Positions 47,120-55,455 of a DNA stretch of 64,000 nucleotides are shown here, in pieces. The number at the start of each line of letters is the position of its first letter. Within the stretch, counting starts at the first letter, position 1. The position numbers and the translations under genes are program-made. The notes beneath the pieces are model-generated. The model was not told the origin of the DNA. It worked only from the letters and a program-made list of their open reading frames with translations, and did no database searches. The stretch is from the NCBI GenBank assembly GCA_965243395.1, contig CBDEUS010000002.1, positions 1,088,001 to 1,152,000 of the forward strand. Reading direction: 5' to 3'. This stretch comes from Gammaproteobacteria bacterium. Lineage in GTDB: Bacteria; Pseudomonadota; Gammaproteobacteria; UBA4575.

Positions 47120-47599
47120 TTAAGAACTTTCTACTTTCATCATTGATTGTAGATAATTTTCCATGCCCACACGATCAATTCGCTCAAACTGAGTTTCAAT
47201 CCAATCGATATGTTCTTCCTCGTTTTCAAGTATTTCTTCGAATAGTTCTCTAGAAATGTAGTCGGATACTTCTTCACAATATGCAATAGCTTCTTTTAAA
47301 TCTGGTACAGCAATTTGCTCCATTTTTAAATCACACTCCAACATTTCTTTTGGGTTTTCACCGATAAAAATCTTTCCAATATCTTGTAAGTTCGGAAGAC
47401 CTTCTAAAAACAAAATTCTTTCGATGAGCATATCTGCATGTTTCATCTCATCGATTGATTCGTGATATTCGTAATCATTGAGTTTTTCTAAGCCCCAATT
47501 TTTATACATGCGTGCATGTAAAAAGTACTGATTGATTGCAGATAGCTCGTTTTTTAATACTTTGTTAAGAAATTCGATTACTTTTTTGTCGCCTTGCAT
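47120..47599 (-). CDS. bfr: Bacterioferritin
   Basis: [22 protein letters not shown] (heme-ligand Met), EEEHIDW. Confidence 0.97.
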
Positions 47600-47700: not shown

Positions 47701-47719
47701 TATAATGATAATGATTTGC
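47701..47719. promoter_or_regulatory. Fur box upstream of the bfr promoter
   Basis: TATAATGATAATGATTTGC, 15/19 to GATAATGATAATCATTATC. Confidence 0.65.
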
Positions 47720-49537: not shown

Positions 49538-50800
49538 TTAGAACATATAACCAATGCCTAAATCAAAGCCATCTAAATCGCGTCCTGCGGCCTCACCAGC
49601 CGGGTCGTGTTCACGATCACGCCAATTAGCTTTAACTACTACACTTTCGTGTGGCCACCAGTTAACACCTGCTTCAATCTCATGATATTGGTCTTGTTCA
49701 CGTGCGCCTTCTACATCTAAGAACCGTGCGTAAATTCCGACATATTCATTTAATTTGAAGCTCGGTTCAATGTACCAGCCAAATTGATCATCAAGTTCTT
49801 CTGCAGTGTCTTCAATGTCGCCACTGAAATCCCATTGAGCATACAAAGCACGTAGGCCAAATGGTCCACGGTTATATATTGCATGAGTAGTGAGTAGCGT
49901 GCCGTCGTCGATGAAGTCATCTTCTGCAGCCGTATCATCATCTTGAGTGGGATCAAACTGATGTTGTGCAGAAGCCGCTAATTCAAGACCTTGTATACCT
50001 GTGTATTTAAGTCTTCCCGTTATAGCGCCGTCACTAAAACGCTGATTGGATAATTTACCTCGAGCGCTTCGAACACGGCCACTAAAACCAGAAAAGTTTA
50101 AACCTGAGGTATACGCAAGATCGGCACTCAATCCATTATCGAACGTCATTGTTCCTCCTATTCCACCTTCCCACCAGGTTGCTGGAATAATAATACTTTC
50201 AACTCCATTGCGCTCAACACCATAAAATGTAGGAGGTTCATGCGTTTCATTTAATATACCTACCGGCTGAAGGAAAACACCTCCACGCACCTGAGCGTTT
50301 TCATTTACATCATATTCTATGAAAGCTTGTTCTATTTCGACTTCACCATCGAGAGGTTCGCCATCAGCTTCTACACCACCATGTTCAATTTCAAACTCAG
50401 ATACGAACCGTAGGTCATCAGTAAATTCTTTACCTATAAATAAAACGAAACGATGTAGATCGATTTCTTCTAAATCTCGGTCACTATCGTCCGCATCATA
50501 GTTGTTGTAATGAACTTCACCGTATCCTCCAAGTGAAATACCTTCAAAGACATCGAGCGGACTGTCTTCCACCACTTCCGCGGTAGCTGTGGCAATTTCT
50601 GTAGCTTCTTCCGCTTTTTCTTCAGCGCGGGTGGCTTTTTCAATTGCTTCTTTTTGTTGAGACATTAAGTACTCAACTGCTTTTTTTAGATTTTCATATT
50701 CTTCTCGGTCAACTGTAATTTTTTCTGCATTTGCAGGTGCAATCAAAACAGTAATAGCCAGAAGTAATACAAACTTGATTAGGATTTTTTGAACAATCAT
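49538..50800 (-). CDS. Outer membrane porin with N-terminal coiled coil, very acidic
   Basis: Signal peptide, coiled coil, GGYGEVHY, DLHRFVL, ETHEPPTFYGVER, terminal GIGYMF beta-signal. Confidence 0.82.
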   Translation of the reverse strand: MIVQKILIKFVLLLAITVLIAPANAEKITVDREEYENLKKAVEYLMSQQKEAIEKATRAEEKAEEATEIATATAEVVEDSPLDVFEGISLGGYGEVHYNNYDADDSDRDLEEIDLHRFVLFIGKEFTDDLRFVSEFEIEHGGVEADGEPLDGEVEIEQAFIEYDVNENAQVRGGVFLQPVGILNETHEPPTFYGVERNGVESIIIPATWWEGGIGGTMTFDNGLSADLAYTSGLNFSGFSGRVRSARGKLSNQRFSDGAITGRLKYTGIQGLELAASAQHQFDPTQDDDTAAEDDFIDDGTLLTTHAIYNRGPFGLRALYAQWDFSGDIEDTAEELDDQFGWYIEPSFKLNEYVGIYARFLDVEGAREQDQYHEIEAGVNWWPHESVVVKANWRDREHDPAGEAAGRDLDGFDLGIGYMF

Positions 50801-50882
50801 TTATTTCTCCCTTAAATAGCTGATCGATGGCATGGCTATAATTTTTGCTAGCCTGAGGTTATTTGCGAATGTTTTTATTAAT

Positions 50883-50907
50883 ACTAATGAGAATGATTCG
50901 CATTTGT
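50883..50907. promoter_or_regulatory. Fur box upstream of porin operon
   Basis: ACTAATGAGAATGATTCGCATTTGT: two overlapping 19-mers (13/19 and 12/19), about 85 bp upstream of the porin ATG. Confidence 0.7.
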
Positions 50908-51012
50908 ATATCTATTTAAGGATAGTTCTCCAAAGGATTGTTGTTATGTGGTTTTTAGTACTTTTAAGCGGATTTGAAGCTATAACATTAGAATTTCGTT
51001 ACAGTTCACGCT

Positions 51013-51729
51013 ATGAAATTCAAACAAATCCTTATAAATAGTGTGCTTTCTTTAGCGTTATTTTGTTCGAGTTTTTATCTTGCTTGGTTGATAAGCGTTC
51101 AGAATAATTTTTTATATTCAACTTGGTATGAAGTTTTAGATATCCAAAAGACAATTGAACGTTATGGGCCACAAAACAAGTTCAGAGATGGTTTTGAAAA
51201 GCTTGATAAGGCAGAGCATGTTCAATTATTTAATGGAATTGTGAAAGCAATTCAAAATAACGGTAACGGCCTTGAGAAACTCGAATATACAAAGACTAAT
51301 AGCAAGGAAAAGTTATTAACTAATGCTGAAGTTATACATTTGCAAGATGTTGCGAATTTAATAACAAAAATCAAGTATTCAGCACTAGCCGGGTTTATCA
51401 CAGTTGCTGTCTTATTGGGCGTTATGTTTTTAACTAATGTCGCAATCAGTACATTAAGAGCCCATCTGTTGGGTGGTGTTGGGGTAATTATTTTATTAAC
51501 TGTTTTGATATTTATTGTTGGACCAACTAACGTATTTTATTGGGGGCATGAACTAATTTTTCCTGATAATCATCAATGGTTTTTTTATTATGAAGAATCG
51601 TTAATGAGTACCATGATGAAAGCACCAGTACTTTTTGGTCCTATTGCACTTCAACTTTTATTTTTGACAATGCTTTTGTGGATAATGTTTTTAGTGCTTA
51701 TTAGAAAAATGACAAATTCAATTGCGTAG
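51013..51729 (+). CDS. DUF1461 / Lit (lipoprotein intramolecular transacylase)-like membrane protein
   Basis: Four TM segments, EVIHLQDV and GHELIF His motifs, HQWFF. Confidence 0.75.
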   Translation: MKFKQILINSVLSLALFCSSFYLAWLISVQNNFLYSTWYEVLDIQKTIERYGPQNKFRDGFEKLDKAEHVQLFNGIVKAIQNNGNGLEKLEYTKTNSKEKLLTNAEVIHLQDVANLITKIKYSALAGFITVAVLLGVMFLTNVAISTLRAHLLGGVGVIILLTVLIFIVGPTNVFYWGHELIFPDNHQWFFYYEESLMSTMMKAPVLFGPIALQLLFLTMLLWIMFLVLIRKMTNSIA

Positions 51730-51732
51730 TAA

Positions 51733-52152
51733 TTATTTTGTGCAGTTATCGGGGTTATTACAAATACCATAAATAATCAAGGCATGATCCGTAATTCTAA
51801 ACCCTTCTTTTTTAGCAATTTTATTTTGCTTATCTTCAATTTCATCATCAACGAACTCAACAATTTTTCCACATTTCACGCATACTATGTGATCGTGATG
51901 ATGTCCTCTTTCGAGCTCAAATACAGCTTGCCCTGATTCAAAATGATGTCGATTCACAAGTGATGCAGACTCGAATTGAGTGAGAACACGGTAAATTGTC
52001 GCCAAGCCTATCTCATCACCGGAATCCAGAAGGATTTTGTAGATATCTTCTGCACTTAAGTGGCGTTCGCTAGAATTTTCTAAGATTTCTAGAATTTTCA
52101 TTCTAGGCAAAGTGACTTTTAGTCCGGCGCGTTTTAGATCTTGGTTCTCCAT
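51733..52152 (-). CDS. fur: Ferric uptake regulator Fur
   Basis: LKRAGLKVTLPR, HLSAED, GLATIYR, HHHDH, CVKC; ATG at 52152. Confidence 0.97.
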   Translation of the reverse strand: MENQDLKRAGLKVTLPRMKILEILENSSERHLSAEDIYKILLDSGDEIGLATIYRVLTQFESASLVNRHHFESGQAVFELERGHHHDHIVCVKCGKIVEFVDDEIEDKQNKIAKKEGFRITDHALIIYGICNNPDNCTK

Positions 52153-52361
52153 CTGCAAAATTCTATCTTATTTGGAGAACACTTGCCTGGCTGATTAAAG
52201 CTAGCGGAGGAGGGCTTTAATGTGGCTTGGTAGTGTGGAGTTGCAAGGAACAAACAGTGCTACTCATGAAGCGAACCTAGCTATTAGCTGTTTTATAACA
52301 AATATCTGCATATATCATGTTATAAAAAGAGATTGTTATGGCTTGGATCGCGAACCTTTTG

Positions 52362-52544
52362 TTATTTTGTTAATAATAATTTGTTATTACTTGTAATTTG
52401 TAAAATATATTTATCACCTTGATGATTTAAGGTTACTCTTTTCTTTCCTTGAAAGATTTTTTCAACATTAATGATATCAAGTGCATCATTAGGCGAAATT
52501 TTTTGTAATTTAATTGTTTTATTTGCAGGAGTAGAGATATTCAT
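52362..52544 (-). CDS. hemP: Hemin uptake protein HemP/HmuP
   Basis: 60 aa ending HQGDKYILQITSNNKLLLTK (KLxLTK signature). Confidence 0.88.
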   Translation of the reverse strand: MNISTPANKTIKLQKISPNDALDIINVEKIFQGKKRVTLNHQGDKYILQITSNNKLLLTK

Positions 52545-52555
52545 AGCCGATTAAA

Positions 52556-52831
52556 TTAGTGGCAAACATGCACAGGTTTTATTACTTGGGTACCTAAATA
52601 TTCTATATATATACAGAATTTACCGGTGTGATCATTCAGTACACCTATTTGTACCTGACCCGAGTTAATTGCATGCAGCATAGTAAGTTCTGATTCACAA
52701 AATGAGCGAGCGACAATATCAATGTCTTGAATAAGAGTAGATTTTATCTTTTCAAACTCGGGAGGGTTAAAGTCCACGAGGTTTCGATTTATAAGTTGAT
52801 CGGGTTTTACAGTGCAATGAACTGATGCCAT
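52556..52831 (-). CDS. Hypothetical protein with His/Cys-rich termini, upstream of hemP
   Basis: 91 aa; AAGGA RBS; 11 bp from hemP; downstream of Fur box. Confidence 0.6.
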   Translation of the reverse strand: MASVHCTVKPDQLINRNLVDFNPPEFEKIKSTLIQDIDIVARSFCESELTMLHAINSGQVQIGVLNDHTGKFCIYIEYLGTQVIKPVHVCH

Positions 52832-52843
52832 TAGTTATCCTTG

Positions 52844-52908
52844 TTGAGATTTACCATATTGCAAATATTAATACGAATGATTATCATTTGCAATATGGTA
52901 AATCTCAA
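52844..52908. promoter_or_regulatory. Perfect 23-bp inverted repeat around a Fur box, forming mirror-image promoters on both strands
   Basis: TTGAGATTTACCATATTGCAAAT (52844-52866) and exact reverse complement (52886-52908); plus TTGCAA-N17-TATCAT, minus TTGCAA-N17-TAATAT; core AATGATTATCATT. Confidence 0.75.
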
Positions 52909-52917
52909 AATCATCCT

Positions 52918-53289
52918 TTGTTTAGCTTAAATGCTTGGTTTGAGCGCTCTAGACCTTACTTAGAGCTGCGTAATAACTACACAAATAAAGTGGTTTTAAA
53001 ACTTAATGGTGAAAGGCTACATGAAGTCTTACAAGATATTGGTTATGACTATGAGGATCTTTTACGAAATGGCGCTTCATCAGAGTTGATTAAAGCTCTG
53101 TTATTGGCATCAATTAAGGATTCTCCAATTAAACTTGATTCAAAAAGCGAAATTCTGAAAAAAGTCACGCCTTTTCCCAAAATAAAAAAAGCCCAACATG
53201 CTTATTTTAAAAGCAGTAAATTCGAAAAAAATGACAAAGTGATATATCTAGACCGTATTTTATTGAACTCAAAAGCTAGAAAGGCTTAA
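52918..53289 (+). CDS. Hypothetical protein (start uncertain)
   Basis: Protein-like from FSLNAWFERSRPYLELR onward; track start 52825 overlaps the divergent gene and promoter, so TTG 52918 is preferred. Confidence 0.5.
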   Translation: MFSLNAWFERSRPYLELRNNYTNKVVLKLNGERLHEVLQDIGYDYEDLLRNGASSELIKALLLASIKDSPIKLDSKSEILKKVTPFPKIKKAQHAYFKSSKFEKNDKVIYLDRILLNSKARKA

Positions 53290-53695
53290 CGACAACAAGA
53301 ATTACAATTGCGAATAGTGCTATTACGGGCGCTTCGTTAAACCAGCGATACCATACATGAGACTTAGTATTTTTATCGCTCGCAAAAGTTTTAACAATTC
53401 TTCCGCACCACAAGTGATAAATAATCAATAAAACAATAAAAAACAATTTGACATACATCCAACCAAAAGATGCGTAGATGTCCCAATTTGGGACCAATAA
53501 AATTGCACCTAACACAATTGTTAATGCCATGCTTGGAGTAGTAAAACGATAAAGCTTACGTTCCATGATTTTAAAACGCTCATTACATGCTGGATTGTCA
53601 TTCATTGCATGGTGAACAAATAATCTTGGTAAATAAAATAAACCTGCAAACCAGGTGATTACAAAAATAATATGTAACGCTTTTATCCAAAGCAT
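53276..53695 (-). CDS. hemJ: Protoporphyrinogen oxidase HemJ
   Basis: WIKALHII..WFAGLFYLPRLFV, MERKL, RWFNEAP, KPF. Confidence 0.93.
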   Translation of the reverse strand: MLWIKALHIIFVITWFAGLFYLPRLFVHHAMNDNPACNERFKIMERKLYRFTTPSMALTIVLGAILLVPNWDIYASFGWMYVKLFFIVLLIIYHLWCGRIVKTFASDKNTKSHVWYRWFNEAPVIALFAIVILVVVKPF

Positions 53696-53709: not shown

Positions 53710-55455
53710 TTAAATGTCATATGAACTTTTAAATTTCTCTTTTGTTAAAACGCCATAGACGCGAATTGTATCAGGGCCTATGGAGCTGCTGATACAAATT
53801 GCTTCAACGCCTTCTTCAATAAATTGCTCACGCGCAGAATCAGCTGTTGCACGCAAGTCTACGCAGCTTACTTGTAAGCGTTTTGCGGGAATTTTCATTA
53901 AATCTATTTGATCTTTTTCTTCTTCATCTTCGATGTAGTTACACAAATCTGATGAGGGAAGGATGGCAATAGGTTTTTCATCTTCAATCACGATCCATTC
54001 TTTGTTTTGCTCGACTAATTCTTTTGCTTGTTCATAAGAAACGATATTACTGCTGCGGAGAATATTTCGGTTCATTACGTTAGCAACCCCAACACGACGT
54101 AATGCTTGCACCATGGGTTCATGACGATAATCCAAACCTTTTAATTGCATGAGCATTCTATAAATAGAACGTTGTCCAAAAAGCTGGCTGGCAGTAAGTT
54201 GTGCAGTCACTATTGCCAACATCCCAGGTAAAATAATATTTGGATTGCTAGTAAGTTCAAACACAGCAGTCAATGCTGCAAGCGGTGCTTGAAGTGTTGC
54301 ACCCATCATGGCTGCCATGCCAATTAATGCATACATACCTGGTGATGATGAGAGGTCGGGAAAAATGGGTTGTGCAATGATCCCCATTATTCCACCCAAA
54401 CTGGCGCCAATAACAAAGGTAGGACCGATCAGACCAGCAGGTAATCCCAAACCGACACTACATGCAGTTGCGATTAGTTTTGCTGCGAATATGATTAATA
54501 AGAGGTTTAAACCAATGTTGTTTACTAATGAGTTATTTACGGTGTCATAACCGATTCCCATTATTTGTGGCGCAAAATAAGCAAGTAAGCCTGTTATGGT
54601 TCCAGCAAGGGTAAATTTAATCCAGATGGATAAGTTTTTACTGGCTATTGAAGCGAGCTTGGTAATGTAAATAAAAATAACCGCTGCGATACCCGTTACT
54701 ACACCAAGAAAAACTACATAGGGTAGTTCCAATAAGTTTGTCAGTTGAAAATTAGGAACTGAAAAAACGACTTCGGCGCCAAATATAGCCCGAGTCACTG
54801 CCGTAGCACTGACCGCAGACAGAATAACCGGTAAAAAACTCGCCAGTGTGTATTCCATCATAACCACTTCAAGTGCGAAGATCACACCTGCTAATGGTGT
54901 ATTAAATGAGGCTCCGATAGCTGCTGCTGTTCCACAGGCTACAAGTGTCCGAATTGTATTATTTGGTAATCCGAGTTTTTGACCAATTATGCTGCTGGTA
55001 GCCGATCCTAAATGAATTGCAGGGCCTTCACGTCCTAAAGACTGGCCTGAAATGATTGCAATAGCCGCCCCAACATACTGCATTATTAAACCACGAATTG
55101 TTAAATAACCTTGATGGTAAGAAAGCCGTTCCATAACATGTGAAACGCCAACGCTTAGGTCTTTTTTAGCAAATAATTTAAATATTGCTGCAATTACTAT
55201 TGCACCAGCAATGGGAAGAAGAATGCGATAGTTAGCGCGTAATCCTTCATAGTTTTCCGGATCTCCATAAGGTAAAAAAGCGGTTTGTACTGATTCAATT
55301 AAAAGCCTGAATGACACGATAACGAAGCCTGTCATAAGGCCGGCCAAAATACCCAGCACAGCAAGTTGTATTAACGCATCTGGTCTTGATGTTCGTAAGC
55401 GTAAATTTTCTAATGCCTGTCGAATCTTGAGGCGAATAATTGATTCTTTTGCCAT
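53710..55455 (-). CDS. ClC chloride channel/antiporter family protein
   Basis: GREGP, FNTPLAGVIFALEV, many TM helices, C-terminal CBS-like region. Confidence 0.9.
   Translation of the reverse strand: MAKESIIRLKIRQALENLRLRTSRPDALIQLAVLGILAGLMTGFVIVSFRLLIESVQTAFLPYGDPENYEGLRANYRILLPIAGAIVIAAIFKLFAKKDLSVGVSHVMERLSYHQGYLTIRGLIMQYVGAAIAIISGQSLGREGPAIHLGSATSSIIGQKLGLPNNTIRTLVACGTAAAIGASFNTPLAGVIFALEVVMMEYTLASFLPVILSAVSATAVTRAIFGAEVVFSVPNFQLTNLLELPYVVFLGVVTGIAAVIFIYITKLASIASKNLSIWIKFTLAGTITGLLAYFAPQIMGIGYDTVNNSLVNNIGLNLLLIIFAAKLIATACSVGLGLPAGLIGPTFVIGASLGGIMGIIAQPIFPDLSSSPGMYALIGMAAMMGATLQAPLAALTAVFELTSNPNIILPGMLAIVTAQLTASQLFGQRSIYRMLMQLKGLDYRHEPMVQALRRVGVANVMNRNILRSSNIVSYEQAKELVEQNKEWIVIEDEKPIAILPSSDLCNYIEDEEEKDQIDLMKIPAKRLQVSCVDLRATADSAREQFIEEGVEAICISSSIGPDTIRVYGVLTKEKFKSSYDI

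Follow-up and report, generated by a model that had tools for sequence, protein, structure and literature searches.

This analysis addressed the question of why a short regulatory region should be framed by inverted-repeat arms that neither a repressor site nor a pair of promoters would seem to need. The region lies at positions 52844-52908 of the window (the whole stretch of 64,000 nucleotides analysed, from a gammaproteobacterium of the UBA4575 lineage), between A91, the first gene of a leftward operon with hemP and possibly fur, and gene B, which is read to the right and resembles the PA4570 family at its N-terminus. The genome carrying the window is designated G000 and its nearest genome G012; other G and L labels denote relatives and loci. 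The explanation held with somewhat better than even confidence was that one site for the ferric uptake regulator Fur would gate two overlapping promoters, and that the arms and the inversions of their core would be products of template switching. The elements of the region are as follows:

Left arm, 52844..52866: perfect inverted repeat; its inner 8 nt are TTGCAAAT, and the reverse complement of its outer 15 nt is the predicted first ~14 nt of the leftward mRNA
Core (spacer), 52867..52885: 19 bp, with most of the Fur box within it, four of the six letters of each predicted -10 hexamer and the 11 nt separating them
Right arm, 52886..52908: perfect inverted repeat; its outer part is the predicted first ~14 nt of the rightward mRNA
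Predicted rightward promoter, 52859..52887, plus strand: -35 TTGCAA (52859-52864), 17-nt spacer, -10 TATCAT (52882-52887); 9/12
Predicted rightward start, near 52894-52895, plus strand
Predicted leftward promoter, 52865..52893, minus strand: -35 TTGCAA (52893-52888), 17-nt spacer, -10 TAATAT (52870-52865); 8/12
Predicted leftward start, near 52858-52857, minus strand
Predicted Fur box, 52869..52889: lineage-specific 21-nt matrix, 24.1 bits on the plus strand and 23.2 bits on the minus strand

The inverted repeat and the 35-bp cassette

The 23-nt arms were exact reverse complements around the 19-nt core, as a preliminary description of the locus had claimed, and the repeat reached 29 nt inward at 93% identity when two mismatches were allowed. 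Among perfect inverted repeats with a loop of at most 40 nt, it was the second longest in the 2.58-Mb genome (38% G+C), in which the longest and most of the others were G+C-rich terminator-like hairpins. The longest arms in three block-shuffled genomes were 13, 13 and 16; the length of the repeat is far above chance and statistically exceptional. The element was single-copy in the genome. Two further long perfect inverted repeats that were not terminator-like lay outside the window, one with 19-bp all-AT arms (G000:C2:846641-846681) and one with 17-bp arms and a 6-nt loop (G000:C1:1121435-1121474).

An assembly artefact was ruled out because the same architecture recurred in the independent genome G012 and in contigs from other studies. 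An intrinsic (bidirectional) terminator was rejected, with 0 terminator-like sites between 52300 and 53400 and an AT-rich stem with no T tract. Neither of the two predicted transcripts includes both arms, which makes a function as an RNA hairpin unlikely. The search of Rfam with the hairpin returned two sub-threshold matches to plant and animal microRNA precursors (25 and 21 bits vs. gathering scores of 95 and 70), which were regarded as generic hairpin matches.

Both TTGCAA -35 hexamers, and the TATCAT (plus) and TAATAT (minus) -10 hexamers at 17-nt spacing, were present as previously claimed. The minus-strand pair TTGCAA-17-TAATAT (8/12) was absent from the list of the promoter scan because the listing threshold was 9/12. 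The top minus-strand promoter of that scan, TTGAGA-17-GATAAT (10/12), was taken as fortuitous, its -35 hexamer lying in the fast-changing outer arm, where G012 has CTGTGA. The central 23 bp between the two self-complementary TTGCAA hexamers held both -10 hexamers and the Fur box, and the order of elements was rightward -35, leftward -10, 11 nt, rightward -10 and leftward -35, all within 35 bp and with the Fur box over the middle. This 35-bp cassette is the conserved part, and would form two fully overlapping divergent promoters. By the established footprint sizes of RNA polymerase, the areas covered from the two predicted starts, which are ~37 bp apart and on opposite strands, would overlap fully.

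Comparisons of arms and of core orientation were made with 18 aligned loci, with the hexamers as a fixed register. The two TTGCAA hexamers were exactly 29 bp apart, start to start (12/12 in 7 loci, at least 10/12 in 14), and a TAnnnT hexamer at 17-nt spacing from the opposite TTGCAA was kept in all relatives, each TTGCAA directly adjoining one. Columns C50, A51 and A52 of the right hexamer were invariant, and T47 was at or above 90%. The left hexamer was TTGCAA, TTGTAA or TTGTTA in 11/11 loci where gene B was found, and was degenerate (ATACGA, ATATAA or ATGCTA) in four cassette loci of the g3 genus that yielded no B; the right hexamer was still TTGCAA in 4/4 of the latter. The left hexamer thus tracked the presence of B, a natural control that supports its assignment to the rightward promoter. 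The exact arrangement TTGCAA-N23-TTGCAA occurred only twice in the genome, the other copy without a Fur-like centre, so the cassette design is not reused in this genome.

Matches to the E. coli Fur consensus agreed with the preliminary description (13/19 at 52867 on the plus strand; 14/19 at 52873 on the reverse strand, 13 on the plus strand). Such scores were common in this AT-rich genome (1750 at 13/19 and 316 at 14/19) and in one shuffle of it (1350 and 222), and therefore prove nothing alone. A 21-nt Fur matrix was built from the sites of 29 relatives, with G000, G012 and L033 left out. Positions 52869-52889 were the third-best matrix locus in the genome (maxima of three shuffles 18.4, 18.8 and 23.0 bits), in a test that is partly circular because the matrix was built from orthologous sites. 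The predicted box covered both predicted -10 hexamers. A Fur-like box (12-17 of 19) stood upstream of A91 in 30/30 other loci examined, and the other top matrix matches adjoined a porin, a ferritin, an iron-type solute-binding protein and a di-haem peroxidase-like gene. The assignment to Fur was based on the matrix rank, the kept boxes, the iron-gene neighbours, the presence of fur and hemP in the same operon region, and the likeness of B to PA4570. One Fur site gating two mutually exclusive promoters, as the preliminary description had proposed, was supported by the comparison in that the cassette with its Fur box was kept across relatives, and stands as a prediction.

Arm turnover and core inversion among relatives

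Perfect arm runs were 25 bp in G012, 23 in G000, 15 in L033, 12 in G014, 10 in G007 and 8 in both G001 and G009, and shorter in the others. They did not exceed 15 bp in any of the 30 other loci scanned and spanned 5 to 25 bp among relatives overall, so long arms are not required by the family. As to the conservation of arm symmetry, which the preliminary description had raised, long arms were limited to the closest lineages, and it was the 35-bp cassette that was kept more widely. In the cassette of L039 (G023; locus positions 1783-1851), 15/25 arm positions were complementary with a short perfect run, possibly what is left of a long arm that has decayed in a different genus.

Differences between the arms of close lineages were paired. 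G012, with an A91 91% identical to that of the window, had perfect 25-bp arms, two pairs longer than those of the window. G000 and G012 differed at 4/23 arm positions, each compensated on the other arm and 0 uncompensated. In P0017, a protein read through the repeat, Y with K corresponded to the G000 state and V with H to the G012 state; judging by these codons, its contig would hold a third mix of compensated arm states. A 151-nt contig from a coral metagenome (X5) had seven right-arm changes (52894, 52899, 52902 and 52904-52907), and 9 of the 10 final letters of the loose end that precedes 52854 were the reverse complement of the changed right-arm letters. Another contig (X6) had 16-bp arms with yet another outer sequence. 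The covariation score of 25 arm pairs was 0.301 compared with 0.179 ± 0.021 for shuffles (0/500 reached it) and 0.13-0.18 with a slid partner. The pair immediately outside the hexamers was formed in 15/18 loci, with six pair types.

Divergence of the outer arms between G000 and G012 (4/15) was similar to that at four-fold sites in five flanking genes (59/161; Fisher p 0.58). Since the outer arms changed at about the four-fold rate and the two arms were identical, symmetry was retained while the sequence drifted at a nearly neutral rate. The outer arms constitute the first letters of the two predicted 5' leaders; as far as the ribosome-binding site of A91, their sequence is apparently unconstrained. 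In the long-arm clade, the right arm covered the site of the Shine-Dalgarno sequence (GGAG) that relatives have before B, and the start codon of B was TTG or GTG; this seems to be a cost that the clade tolerates, not a designed feature.

Selection on the long arms themselves was judged unlikely as an explanation. The arms would be selected as a cruciform, an idea already raised in the preliminary description, or as unwinding hairpins that alter promoter geometry or Fur access, for example in supercoiling-sensitive control. Folding of the 65 nt as single-stranded DNA gave -22.9 kcal/mol vs. -4.3 ± 1.6 kcal/mol for shuffles (z -12), the core was AT-rich, and Watson-Crick arms were kept by compensated changes in G000, G012 and X5, all as such a structure would have it. 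However, a 19-nt spacer makes extrusion costly according to established cruciform energetics, and relatives with the same genes had arms of 5 to 12 bp. The nearly neutral rate of the outer arms is also unexpected if double mutants had to pass through disfavoured intermediates.

Selection on the shared first ~14 nt of the two mRNA was considered distinctly improbable. These letters would be the target of an RNA or protein regulator, or would encode a leaderless mini open reading frame (ORF) at ATG 52895 (plus) or 52857 (minus). By symmetry, both predicted transcripts begin with the same letters. The ATGG at the predicted start was kept in G000, G012, L033 and X5, in all of which the plus-strand 11-codon frame from that ATG was open (by eye), and the stop of the minus-strand mini-ORF overlapped the A91 start in G000 and G012. 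Nevertheless, 4 to 7 of the outer 15 letters differed between close lineages, and a trans-acting partner would have to change along with them each time; the minus-strand mini-ORF had 2 codons in L033, the ATG was missing in X6 and in more distant relatives, and an open frame of only 11 codons is nothing unusual.

The central 23 bp (52865-52887) were inverted in 5/18 loci (G001, G013, G014, G046 and G019). The five inverted cores fitted the other 13 better as the reverse complement in every cross-class pair, and within-class pairs fitted at least as well directly. Between G013 and G012, 11/23 letters agreed directly and 20/23 after inversion, a gain of nine letters (counted by eye). In the inverted loci A91 stayed on the left, and B was found on the right in G001, G013 and G014; the core is thus turned round with respect to the genes. 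In G001 and G014, which are inverted and have an intact right hexamer, TATCAT passes to the predicted A91 promoter and the weaker hexamer to that of B.

The A91 tree of 21 rows, which replaced a 31-row tree with long-branch joins (L053-L062 and L063 were dropped), needed two orientation changes, and a single origin with G001, G013 and G014 together was rejected (p-AU 0.018). The same grouping was rejected by the ClC plus ArgC tree of the genus (p-AU 0.010), in which both orientations occurred inside one tight clade. These topologies point to at least two flips of the core. The micro-invertible core exchanging the -10 hexamers that the preliminary description had offered as one possibility was thus borne out on the evolutionary scale; a switch within a population is not shown by these data.

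A site-specific invertible switch was rejected, the segment being of only 19-23 bp and the seven flanking ORFs containing no recombinase (Pfam). A length of 19 bp is too short for recombinase looping. An active switch operating without a recombinase, with template switching inverting the 19-23-bp core at a measurable rate within the population and long arms being kept because they raise that rate, was given a very low probability. Both orientations occurred among relatives, with the minimum of two flips given above, a flip trades TATCAT for the weaker -10 between the genes, and for yeast PMC8604942 documents spacers flipped reversibly by template switching. On the other side, the long-arm lineages that could be read (G000, G012, L033 and, from its codons, apparently P0017) shared one orientation, and no recombinase family was found in the seven ORFs scanned at 49538-53695 (Pfam, NCBIfam), a channel-like ORF at 53710-55455 being outside the scan. 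If such a reversible promoter did operate, the strong and the weak -10 would be exchanged between the fur operon and the PA4570-like gene, with heritable and reversible variation in the sharing of the iron-starvation output.

Template switching without selection for the arms was the preferred explanation. In yeast, template switching homogenises repeat arms and inverts spacers, recurrently and reversibly (PMC8604942), and extended a 7-bp repeat to a perfect 25-bp repeat at the ERT1 promoter (PMC13100816); PMC8794818 also deals with template-switch evolution of short inverted repeats in yeast (the three sources are represented here by their accessible parts). In the yeast cases a short seed grew into perfect arms, several nucleotides changed at once in paired fashion, and the spacer was inverted repeatedly and reversibly (PMC8604942, PMC13100816, as far as available), and the same marks were seen here: paired multi-nucleotide differences kept the arms identical between G000 and G012 and symmetric in X5 and X6, and the spacer was inverted between lineages in more than one event. 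Arm expansion and homogenisation with paired changes, together with recurrent spacer inversion, make the symmetry fit template switching, and the excess symmetry is most likely mutational in origin. The explanation that agrees best with the data, namely that the symmetry is of mutational origin, was missing from the preliminary description.

In the proposed mechanism, the leftward promoter would serve A91-hemP(-fur) and the rightward promoter the PA4570-like gene. A single Fur operator over both would repress both when iron is plentiful, and RNA polymerase would occupy one direction at a time. The perfect 23-bp arms would be unnecessary for promoter function, and would arise and persist through template switching in replication. 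Selection on the -35 hexamers would maintain the conserved 8-bp seed TTGCAAAT / ATTTGCAA, which would be the switch point for the nascent strand. By copying one arm from the other, the nascent strand would extend the arms, keep them identical and occasionally invert the spacer. Flips would be tolerated because the cassette works in either orientation, and would move the stronger -10 (TATCAT) from one gene to the other.

Several points weigh against this explanation. Selection for symmetry would also account for long arms that stay perfect in three or four close lineages while their sequence turns over heavily, and the neutral-rate test, with 4/15 positions, has little power. Loss of the Shine-Dalgarno site of B could be a mutational cost or a designed feature. 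The arms of X5 appear to be about 22 bp long with a different outer sequence, a length deduced in part, as position 52858 is not displayed. The orientation groups were named after the data had been seen. The A91 loci of G007, G008, G009 and G011 are not beside hemJ-ClC, so the history of the gene may differ from that of the species, and the flip count could shift. The Fur box of the window is weak by the E. coli consensus, with 13-14/19 being a score common by chance. Template switching was inferred from pattern only, and transcription starts and Fur binding are likewise predictions.

Flanking genes

The genes on both sides of the repeat are as follows:

A91, 52556..52831, minus strand: 91 amino acids (aa), first gene of the leftward operon; invariant C45, C73 and H91
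Shine-Dalgarno sequence AAGGA of A91, 52838..52842, minus strand: 1 nt beyond the left arm; same arrangement in G012
hemP, 52362..52544, minus strand: hemin uptake protein family (PF10636, E 6.6e-12), 11 nt downstream of A91
fur, 51733..52158, minus strand: ferric uptake regulator (PF01475, E 4.1e-47), downstream of hemP
Gene B, 52918..53289, plus strand: 123 aa, PA4570-like N-terminus; probable TTG start at 52918 without a Shine-Dalgarno sequence

The seven ORFs at 49538-53695 were porin-like, Lit, fur, hemP, A91, B and UPF0093/HemJ-like. Homologues of A91 were present in 30/56 genomes of the family and aligned over their full length from M1, indicating a conserved start. Close relatives occurred in coral, sponge and marine metagenome runs. 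A91 matched no Pfam or NCBIfam family and had no usable Atlas match. With its structural model, the best rows of Foldseek were lambda Cro chains and were not significant (E 0.2-1.4, best E 0.22; TM 0.3-0.4), and the best VIA-align matches were unrelated folds (best Z 3.7). A second 91-aa ORF near another matrix match was unrelated to A91.

The arms could also be half-sites of a second dimeric regulator beside Fur, possibly A91 or B itself, and this was accorded a very slight probability. Inverted repeats are typical of operators, and lambda Cro headed the Foldseek rows for A91. Those fold matches were not significant (E above 0.1), however, the arm centres are 42 bp apart, and arm sequences differed greatly where A91 was 73-91% identical. 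Because arm sequence differs between close lineages, a dimeric regulator fits poorly, as does a reader of the shared leader.

Six genomes of the same genus (G002-G006 and G010) had the ClC-argC neighbourhood and no A91 match with the queries used. A91 and ClC shared a contig in G011 but were far apart on it, and they were on separate contigs in G007, G008 and G009. The A91 cassette seems to move or to get lost. In G014, the ClC gene matched in adjacent pieces (residues 4-190 and 186-581; G014:C8:88665-90405, L082 and L084), which points to a frameshift or to faulty assembly.

The 203-nt spacer between hemP and fur (52159-52361) differed from that of G012 at 13/203 positions, compared with 59/161 at four-fold sites (Fisher p 6e-13). 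It was G+C-richer than its surroundings, had no Rfam match, and its RNA fold was not notable (z -1.5); it may contain a fur promoter or leader, or an unfamiliar RNA. Elsewhere in the window, the porin-like gene (49538-50800, minus strand) had the best Fur-matrix match of the genome (29.5 bits; 50885-50905) upstream and FMN_bind and PepSY_TM genes downstream, and matrix matches at 47703 and 48115 flanked the ferritin gene (47120-47599). With matches near the porin-like and ferritin genes, the window holds a cluster of likely Fur targets.

Residues 2-63 of gene B matched NF050178 (E 3.5e-9; 36.8 bits) under the curated cut-off of 100, so B resembles the PA4570 family and was not filed as a member. 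Homologues of B begin with MFSLNAW or MLSLNAW at the position of 52918, where distant relatives have GGAG and ATG. The 154-aa ORF that begins at ATG 52825 and traverses the repeat is probably an over-extension. That the repeat lies within a genuine 154-aa coding sequence and owes its symmetry to coding was considered extremely improbable. The frame was open from 52825 in G000, G012 and the P0017 contig, and gene callers chose 52825. Against a coding origin, homology to relatives starts at residue 30-33, other homologues start at the 52918 position, the frame was closed 15 codons upstream in L033, and a coding region would be an implausible place for a Fur box and two promoters. The recorded gene calls look wrong at both starts, with A91 given as 73 aa (P0003) and B as 154 aa (P0015). 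An extra gene lay between the cassette and B in G014 (L005:1950-2170) and G013 (L006:1948-2570); with its N-terminus MAKLLHIE..SPR, it presumably resembles an FMN-dependent azoreductase.

Comparison with known systems and significance

Comparisons with published systems refer to the accessible parts of the sources. The fepB-entC region of E. coli likewise has divergent iron-starvation genes repressed by Fur from a shared intergenic region, but over ~374 bp and by way of two Fur boxes that do not overlap, one per direction, whereas the present locus has one box and both promoters in 35 bp, with long repeat arms (PMC5020551). As in the bidirectional promoters of Warman and Grainger, pseudo-symmetric sequence here would let polymerase bind either way, one binding event excluding the other (PMC12825309). 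Those promoters, however, have one shared symmetric -10, with starts most often 18 bp apart and 10 or 23 bp also common (PMC12825309). With two separate -10 hexamers 11 bp apart and predicted starts ~37 bp apart, the present pair falls outside the definition of a bidirectional promoter in the accessible part of PMC12825309, and is better described as overlapping divergent promoters.

The pa4570 locus of P. aeruginosa has a Fur box upstream and is strongly repressed by iron and induced by iron starvation (bioRxiv 10.64898/2026.09.03.749296, accessible part). PA4570 is, like B, encoded by a small protein gene behind a Fur box, and it is the N-terminus of B that matches the family model. The two differ in length, with ~123 aa for B compared with a 69-position PA4570 model, and the 36.8-bit score lies below the cut-off.

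In fimS and hin, the orientation of a segment flanked by inverted repeats decides which gene gets a promoter element. Those segments are hundreds of base pairs long and require a dedicated recombinase. The orientation-dependent promoter element of the cassette can be likened to them, but its segment is of only 19-23 bp and none of the seven flanking ORFs matched a recombinase (Pfam). The literature search on spacer inversion, inverted repeats and promoters in bacteria found descriptions for yeast only. The present case differs from the yeast cases in being bacterial and in that the 19-bp spacer carries the regulator site and both -10 hexamers, so inversion would exchange promoter strength.

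The cassette would represent a compact promoter design usable in either orientation, its 35 bp accommodating a single Fur box together with two -10 hexamers and two palindromic -35 hexamers. Compensated changes and perfect symmetry are, as a caution, no proof of a selected structure. If the preferred explanation is right, the locus would be a natural bacterial case of template switching at a short functional palindrome reshaping a promoter. The process would build perfect arms of 23-25 bp and keep them identical during nearly neutral drift, overwrite a neighbouring ribosome-binding site, and repeatedly flip a core of operator and -10 hexamers between two genes.

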